A stretch of DNA of 64,000 bases from Escherichia coli (GCF_045037415.1 NZ_CP173438.1), one strand, 5' to 3'. Numbered from the stretch's first letter, positions 57,558 to 57,578 are shown. Notes: a model not told the origin generated them from the sequence alone. Program-made: numbers and translations.

Positions 57558-57578
57558 TATGGACAATAGTTGTCCATA
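57558..57578. promoter_or_regulatory. perfect palindrome (candidate operator) upstream of the helicase-nuclease gene
   Basis: tatggacaa-tag-ttgtccata: 9-bp arms around a 3-bp centre, 55 bp upstream of the ATG at 57633, inside an AT-rich intergenic region. Confidence 0.4.

Follow-up and report, generated by a model that had tools for sequence, protein, structure and literature searches.

A perfect palindrome upstream of the Mokosh type II gene mkoC in Escherichia coli, read as the core of a predicted sigma-70 promoter

We analyzed a stretch of 64,000 nucleotides (nt) of the Escherichia coli chromosome (GCF_045037415.1, NZ_CP173438.1; referred to in full as the window), in which an island integrated at a transfer RNA (tRNA) gene carries mkoC, a Mokosh type II defense gene, behind a P4-type tyrosine integrase gene. 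The spacer between integrase and mkoC holds a perfect 9-3-9 palindrome composed of TATGGACAA (57558–57566), TAG (57567–57569), and TTGTCCATA (57570–57578), separated by 54 nt from the mkoC ATG at 57633. A first-pass annotation, made from the sequence alone, had proposed that the palindrome is the operator of a dimeric repressor or, alternatively, that it marks the promoter of the defense gene; our data support the promoter part of this proposal and not the operator part. On balance, and by a modest preference, we read the palindrome as the core of the mkoC sigma-70 promoter rather than as a separate regulatory device, with a symmetry that is most likely incidental. The features of the locus are collected in Table 1.

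Table 1. Annotated and predicted features of the pheU island around mkoC, in window coordinates.
Feature	Position	Strand	Basis
tRNA-Phe (GAA), pheU by synteny, island integration site	55646–55721	+	ARAGORN; gene order
P4-type tyrosine integrase, 420 amino acids	55919–57181	+	Open reading frame; Pfam Arm-DNA-bind_3, Phage_int_M, Phage_integrase
GC-rich hairpin with 13-bp arms directly 3' of the integrase stop, probable terminator	57183–57213	.	Inverted repeat
Conserved A-rich tract (AAACAAA-like) immediately upstream of the -35, at the left homology limit between contexts	57530–57535	+	Information profile, 63 regions
Probable -35 hexamer, TTGCAT in the window and TTGCGA in most orthologues	57539–57544	+	Conservation
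Perfect 9-3-9 palindrome, TATGGACAA-TAG-TTGTCCATA	57558–57578	.	Direct reading
TG and probable -10 hexamer GACAAT (57562–57567)	57560–57567	+	Conservation and sigma-70 scoring
Predicted transcription start window, inside the right arm	57574–57576	+	Conservation and spacing
Conserved AT-rich blocks, TTTATAT then AAATCAA, presumed 5' untranslated region	57586–57604	+	Conservation
Shine-Dalgarno AGGA, 6 nt before the ATG, GGA conserved	57623–57626	+	Direct reading; conservation
mkoC, Mokosh type II, helicase and PLD nuclease	57633–61147	+	PADLOC MkoC, E = 0; Pfam AAA_11, AAA_12, PLDc_2
3' hairpin AGCCATCTTAC ... GTAAGATGGCT beyond the mkoC stop	61164–61200	+	Inverted repeat

The gene was assigned to Mokosh type II as a single protein that combines an N-terminal SF1 helicase with a C-terminal PLD nuclease and matches the MkoC profile (PADLOC PDLC03924, 1529.8 bits over profile positions 127–1135, with the N-terminal open reading frame, ORF, covering positions 1–138). 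The Pfam domains were found on an intact MkoC homologue. The window copy is split into two ORFs because it lacks a G (at ∼57981) that is present in the intact strain 4/0 gene (1171 amino acids), and this deletion (region 57975–57995) may reflect either a pseudogene or a sequencing error. In its end-to-end profile match, its helicase and PLD domains, its single-gene organization, and its own upstream region, the window gene resembles the Mokosh type II system described by Millman et al. (bioRxiv 10.1101/2022.05.11.491447), from which it differs in carrying the 1-nt frameshift. Interrupted copies of mkoC also occur in CFT073, where the gene is cut by IS3, in the UBA7338 metagenome-assembled genome (L005), and in C. 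koseri (L011).

In different E. coli strains, mkoC sits behind the integrases of pheU, leuX, and selC islands (L001, L002, and L003). When these three contexts were aligned, homology began sharply at ∼57530, 28 bp before the palindrome, and ended sharply at ∼61211, past the 3' hairpin, which is overlapped by a shorter stem (61156–61176) flagged as terminator-like. Because homology between contexts spans this interval, some 100 bp upstream of the ATG travel with the gene; judged by these boundaries, mkoC, its ∼100-bp upstream region, and the 3' hairpin are a self-contained mobile cassette. We rejected the palindrome as a recombination site or cassette end, as the homology boundary is 28 bp further out and no counterpart was noticed on the 3' side.

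The sequence and coordinates of the palindrome given by the first-pass annotation proved exact on rereading, and its AT-rich intergenic setting was confirmed (GC content of 0.39 in the integrase–mkoC spacer and 0.32 in its last 110 nt, against 0.51 in the window). First-order Markov simulations predict 0.3 perfect 9-3-9 palindromes per window and 3.3 when any loop of 0–10 nt is allowed; 18 with such loops were observed, or ∼11 distinct ones once nested cases were removed. The others are mostly GC-rich, and several (e.g. 39599, 52810, and 55732) run straight into a T tract, as terminators do, leaving 57558–57578 as the sole AT-rich one. The chance of a perfect palindrome in this 450-bp spacer is ∼0.02, and its single-stranded DNA hairpin has a folding energy of -7.2 kcal/mol (z = -3.0). 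The palindrome is therefore real and somewhat unusual, but statistically not compelling, because it had been picked for its perfection by the earlier reader.

Orthologous loci were retrieved via the protein, which leaves the sample unbiased towards the promoter. From 15 genome-derived loci, 80 metagenome-derived loci, and the three E. coli contexts, we obtained 64 distinct upstream regions, of which one (L077) had an unrelated upstream region and was excluded; the remaining 63 were aligned and fall into ∼27 clusters at 90% identity. A separate, smaller alignment of 13 orthologues was used for covariation. The MkoC proteins range down to 62–72% identity with that of the window, and the upstream 100 bp are still alignable at this distance.

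Conservation across the 63 regions peaks at the A-rich tract (57530–57535), TTGC (57539–57542), TGGACAAT (57560–57567), TT (57570–57571), and CAT (57575–57577), followed downstream by TTTATA (57586–57591), AAATCAA (57598–57604), and the GGA of the Shine-Dalgarno sequence. The strongest block upstream of mkoC is TGGACAAT, which runs from the third base of the left arm to the first base of the loop. It varies solely at 57562 (G to C in L059 and L061) and 57564 (C to A in L060, L072, and L073), with A57563, the two A residues at -9 and -8, and T57567 invariant across the aligned regions. Positions 57539–57540 are at the 2.0-bit maximum in the clustered set and positions 57541–57542 at ∼1.75 bits (57541: 1.77), and TTG is invariant in the 13-sequence alignment. 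The gap between TTGC and GACAAT is constant at 16–17 nt, with an intervening sequence that differs between clades. In the right arm, A57576 is invariant (2.0 bits) and is preceded by C.

The -12 and -10 positions are the least critical of a -10 hexamer, and A-11 and T-7 are the bases that the hexamer cannot lose. Because TGGACAAT varies only at -12 and -10 (A57563 corresponding to A-11 and T57567 to T-7) and TTGC keeps a promoter-like distance from it, we assigned TTGC to a probable -35 element and GACAAT, preceded by TG, to a probable -10 element. The hexamers are separated by 17 nt in the window (TTGCAT) and by 16 nt in most orthologues (TTGCGA), within the 16–18 nt of sigma-70 core promoters, and key positions and spacing are conserved around a spacer of variable sequence, as in a sigma-70 core promoter. 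Scoring with a Hawley-McClure-type matrix placed the GACAAT site as the best sigma-70-like site in 43 of the 63 upstream regions and as the second best in a further 17. The suggestion that the palindrome may mark the defense-gene promoter was thus supported, since it covers the best-conserved upstream element, with the hexamer spacing and pattern of variation of a sigma-70 site.

From conservation and spacing, we infer the identity of the two hexamers and the position of the start. The left arm would be the -10 box, and the right arm would cover the discriminator and the start site, which most likely falls at 57574–57576, 7–9 nt past the hexamer. A57576 lies 9 nt past it and, in most orthologues, at a distance of 57 nt from the ATG. 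The A-rich tract is UP-element-like and may have the corresponding role. Taken together, the element is probably a sigma-70 promoter of ordinary type that serves a known defense gene and had not been described before.

In the mechanism that we propose, RNA polymerase holoenzyme would read TTGCAT as the -35 element and, after the 17-nt spacer, (TG)GACAAT within the left arm as the -10 element. Transcription would then start 7–9 nt further on, at C, C, or A inside the right arm, producing an AT-rich, unstructured leader of 57–59 nt that carries the AGGA Shine-Dalgarno sequence. Promoter function would keep the left arm constant, and constraints on the start site and the early transcript would do so for the outer right arm (CCAT). 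Both blocks would already have been matched at 6 of 9 positions in the common ancestor, and a few extra substitutions would have completed the match in one E. coli/E. albertii lineage. According to Millman et al. (bioRxiv 10.1101/2022.05.11.491447), E. coli MG1655 is protected by Mokosh systems cloned under their native promoters, so that at least some native Mokosh promoters work without island-specific factors.

Several observations weigh against this assignment. Judged by consensus, the promoter is weak, its hexamers matching at 3 of 6 and 4 of 6 positions, and it scores below the built-in scan threshold, two higher-scoring sigma-70-like sites lie upstream in non-conserved DNA (57199–57227 and 57258–57287), and a search for start-site data from any mkoC-carrying strain found none. 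Conservation at T57560, at G57561, and at the non-consensus positions 57562 and 57564 exceeds what a -10 element alone needs; the excess may stem from a protein site that overlaps it or from selection to keep expression low. All derived arm substitutions leading to the window allele raised the symmetry (57573 A to T, 57572 A to G, and 57559 G to A), the outermost pair 57558/57578 changed on both sides from C-G to T-A via C-A, and one sub-lineage extends the repeat to 10-3-10 through C57579T. At face value, the chance of this pattern is ∼0.01, although the site had been chosen for its perfection.

Other promoter placements fared worse. TGGACA as a -35 paired with a -10 further downstream, TTTATA as a -35 combined with TTTCAT as a -10, and TATATT as a -10 were rejected because they lack A-11 or T-7 or have spacing that is inconsistent between clades. 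None of the sigma factors 54, 32, E, 28, and S fits across the orthologues when compared by eye with their consensus sequences.

Across orthologues, the perfect form is confined to the E. coli/E. albertii clade of pheU/selC type, or 1 of the ∼27 clusters. Outside this clade, 3–7 of the 9 pairs are symmetric; the promoter persists with 6 of 9 in leuX-type E. coli and Citrobacter loci, and the family consensus, CGTGGACAA-TGT-TTAACCATG, is likewise 6/9 symmetric. For each pair, the number of Watson-Crick-symmetric sequences equals the independent-column expectation, variants in the left arm are never compensated in the right arm, and the covariation score in the 13-sequence alignment was matched by 183 of 500 shuffles. 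Symmetry is thus neither kept nor co-varying in homologous loci, as it should be for an operator.

Within E. coli, ∼880 of 5426 complete genomes carry the region. The window allele is found exactly over 30 nt in 264 genomes, the commonest single allele is T57570C (343 genomes including CFT073), which breaks the inner pair and leaves 8 of 9, and ∼110 genomes differ from the window at three positions, like the leuX type (6/9). The first-pass annotation had itself named absence of the palindrome from otherwise conserved homologous loci as evidence against its operator, and such absence is what these alleles and the more distant loci exhibit.

An operator would also be expected to recur and to have a cognate DNA-binding protein nearby, and neither was found. 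There is no other exact copy of the half-site in the window, where copies with one mismatch are about as frequent as chance predicts (14 against 12.2 expected). The search for further copies that had been recommended earlier yielded no second copy of the palindrome in the window or in the 5426 E. coli genomes or plasmids, a search that degenerate sites would escape; all E. coli matches to a 30-nt probe correspond to the mkoC promoter, none of them lying on a plasmid, and genomes that lack mkoC have no match. The earlier statement that no regulator gene lies between integrase and helicase gene was also correct: ORF, Pfam, and PADLOC analyses of the spacer gave no credible regulator. Its sole ORF (87 amino acids, minus strand, 57281–57544) has no Pfam or PADLOC match and overlaps a psiE-like remnant (∼57266–57436, minus strand; a RefSeq partial pseudogene in the homologous selC-island locus), whose presence accounts for this spurious ORF, and we rejected it as a hidden regulator. 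The downstream island genes of the window and of L001 contain no match to a regulator family, and ORF inspection revealed no recurrent regulator near mkoC in pheU, selC, leuX, or non-E. coli contexts, the neighbors differing everywhere. We also infer that no dedicated protein binds the palindrome.

In Escherichia sp. E1V33, a protein of 265 amino acids with an XRE-type helix-turn-helix N-terminus, recognized by eye, is encoded ∼450 bp upstream of a 63%-identical mkoC (L015:2749–3546); no such XRE-like neighbor was visible in the other contexts examined. Over the -35 and spacer, most non-E. coli orthologues have another dyad, TTGCGA-N6-TCGCA(A/T) (e.g. L016:3910–3927). Its arms are conserved and its center is variable, with 28 of 63 regions perfect at 5/5 and 12 at 4/5; it mostly contains a GATC (Dam) site and is absent from the window clade. 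As an operator candidate, this dyad may surpass the reported palindrome.

A lineage-specific operator in the pheU/selC-type E. coli clade would be bound by a dimeric helix-turn-helix repressor encoded elsewhere (host chromosome, prophage, or another island), which, by covering -18 to +3, would block the open complex and keep the helicase-nuclease low until a signal arrives. Its geometry is apt, the centers of TGGACA and TGTCCA being 11 bp apart, about one helical turn, over the inferred -10 and +1 of the core promoter, and the run of substitutions towards symmetry, with its two-sided change and 10-3-10 extension, favors it, as does the standing of the palindrome as the only AT-rich, non-terminator one among the ∼11 distinct perfect ones. 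The different dyad that other clades carry on the same promoter may also mean that dyads are functional here and turn over. Against this, no candidate regulator is linked to mkoC in any context, a single site in 5426 genomes would amount to a one-site regulon, the commonest E. coli allele has its inner pair broken and ∼110 genomes are at 6/9, family-wide covariation is absent, the palindrome had been selected for perfection, and a text search of the literature did not find its sequence. The operator of the first-pass annotation is accordingly unsupported by covariation, second copy, or linked regulator, and we consider a lineage-specific version of it unlikely; if it were true, a regulator-less defense cassette would be wired into host control. 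A more specific form, which we consider less likely still, is that one E. coli/E. albertii lineage recently mutated its start region into a mirror of the -10 box and thereby gained a new operator, the older TTGCGA-N6-TCGCA dyad being lost; this would place a single-gene defense cassette under a host- or prophage-encoded repressor and constitute operator turnover on a mobile immune gene. It is also conceivable, though in our judgment very unlikely, that TGGACAAT with the downstream TT..CCAT is an asymmetric or half-palindromic site of a host protein shared across Enterobacterales (an activator, nucleoid protein, or repressor) and that the true -10 lies elsewhere. Such a site would account for the conservation of TG at 57560–57561 and of the non-consensus G57562 and C57564 beyond the needs of RNA polymerase, for the 6/9 symmetry already present in the ancestral consensus, and for the other conserved AT-rich blocks, two of them similar to H-NS and IHF core motifs, in a presumed leader without RNA structure. 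However, the 8-mer varies only at the least important -10 positions, with the invariant TTGC 16–17 nt away, and no other -10 candidate containing A-11 and T-7 is conserved with constant spacing. To our knowledge, no enterobacterial factor motif matches the TGGACAAT region; those compared include the 434-type ACAA-N6-TTGT, IclR, RutR, the DnaA box, AraC, PhoP, PmrA, CRP, and controller-protein boxes.

Readings at the RNA level are highly improbable. Transcribed from an upstream promoter, the palindrome would form a hairpin that terminates or insulates integrase read-through or controls mkoC translation; in a variant, the ATG in the left arm would start a leader peptide. A scan indeed flags the stem, loop, and CGGTGGTTTT as terminator-like, and 77% of cells pair across the 13 orthologues when G-U is allowed, but only 3 of the 9 pairs are G-C, the TTTT begins 7 nt past the stem, most orthologues have mismatches at pairs 73/83 and 74/82, and covariation is no better than in shuffles. 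If the conserved promoter is correct, the right arm would moreover be only partly transcribed. We rejected an intrinsic terminator on account of the weak stem and displaced T run, unlike those at 39599, 52810, and 55732, and a structured cis-regulatory RNA or known family for want of an Rfam match near threshold, of a consensus structure of the leader (RNAalifold returned zero pairs), and of covariation. The leader-peptide variant can point to ATG57559, which opens a 24-codon ORF (57559–57633) whose TAA overlaps the mkoC ATG (TAATG); yet this ORF has no Shine-Dalgarno sequence, is 4 codons long in most orthologues, ends 3 codons early in the leuX type and L081, and reads through GAC AAT codons whose invariant third positions are not a coding pattern. 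With its frame unconserved and no ribosome-binding site, it was rejected, as was an equally unconserved, leaderless mini-ORF starting at CATG.

The predicted promoter has counterparts among known sigma-70 promoters. P3 of bla in Tn3 and pBR322 is a sigma-70 promoter with a GACAAT -10 hexamer. The mkoC promoter shares with sigma-70 promoters containing GACAAT a TTG-type -35, a spacer of 16–17 nt, a nearby upstream TG, and an A-rich tract before the -35. It differs from them in that its TG abuts the hexamer (-14/-13) instead of taking the canonical -15/-14 position, in a downstream sequence that mirrors the -10 region, and in a start that is predicted. The palindrome itself resembles LexA boxes, lac O1, the C-boxes of restriction-modification controller proteins, and the inverted repeats recognized by BrxR/CapW-type defense regulators in having half-sites one turn apart over a -10 and start (predicted ones for mkoC), and in preceding a potentially toxic defense gene. 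Those operators have an identified protein, encoded beside the operon in defense and restriction-modification systems, and are usually multi-copy or conserved in symmetry, whereas the mkoC palindrome has no linked regulator, second copy, or conserved symmetry. A literature search retrieved no description of the mkoC promoter or its regulation.

The promoter reading would supply a map (-35, -10, likely +1, and a conserved leader of 57 nt) for the Mokosh type II gene, which is present in ∼16% of complete E. coli genomes and whose promoter, coding region, and 3' hairpin move together as a self-contained unit from one tRNA-linked island to another. It also does away with an operator annotation that is tempting but lacks support, and illustrates how a conserved -10 facing a constrained start-site region can give rise to a perfect palindrome.

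Two further motifs lie in the presumed leader. TCGATAAATC, in the region 57593–57610, agrees at 9 of 10 positions with TCGATAAATT, which we take to be the H-NS nucleation motif, and the conserved ATCAA-N4-TT (57600–57610) resembles WATCAANNNNTTR, presumably the IHF core.

The window belongs to the E. coli chromosome, with three tRNA-Gly genes at 26.2–26.5 kb, and its gene order aspA-dcuA-cutA-dsbD-tRNA-Phe is identical in strain 4/0. The terminator-like call for the hairpin at 57183–57213 falls on the minus strand. Downstream of mkoC, the island cargo includes an EptA-like phosphoethanolamine transferase (499 amino acids) and an outer-membrane beta-barrel protein (251 amino acids) on the minus strand (61256–63691), common to the pheU and selC contexts and not found in the leuX context.

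We rejected a phage origin of the site, since the best match covers 35 nt at 88.6% identity in a 4-kb record that lacks annotation (Salmonella phage S.Kent 1-2-1) and the rest have E values of at least 2. A plasmid origin was likewise rejected, the matches being the same promoter at 89% in two Salmonella records without annotation. Among viral contigs, ATGGACAA-N3-TTGTCCAT is matched 17 times, which by a rough estimate is close to what chance would give. The sole exact viral match to the 21-mer, TATGGACAATAGTTGTCCATA (L026:859–879), lies inside an ORF of 320 amino acids that looks AbiH-like by eye, where it reads N-I-W-T-I-V-V-H-R, and is a coincidence in coding sequence. Three ATGGACA-type sites, ATGGACAATTATTGTCCAT, TATGGACAC, and ATGGACATTTTTTGTCCGT, occur within 160 bp of apparently non-coding sequence in another viral contig (IMGVR_UViG_3300036861_000294; L033:2029–2185); they may represent clustered operators of an unrelated phage, and no link between them and the E. 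coli locus was found. Elsewhere in the window, perfect 9-3-9 palindromes occur at 50561–50581 (CTTTCAGCA-tcc-TGCTGAAAG) and at 39599–39619 (CGGCCCGCC-tat-GGCGGGCCG), the latter followed by TTTT and terminator-like.
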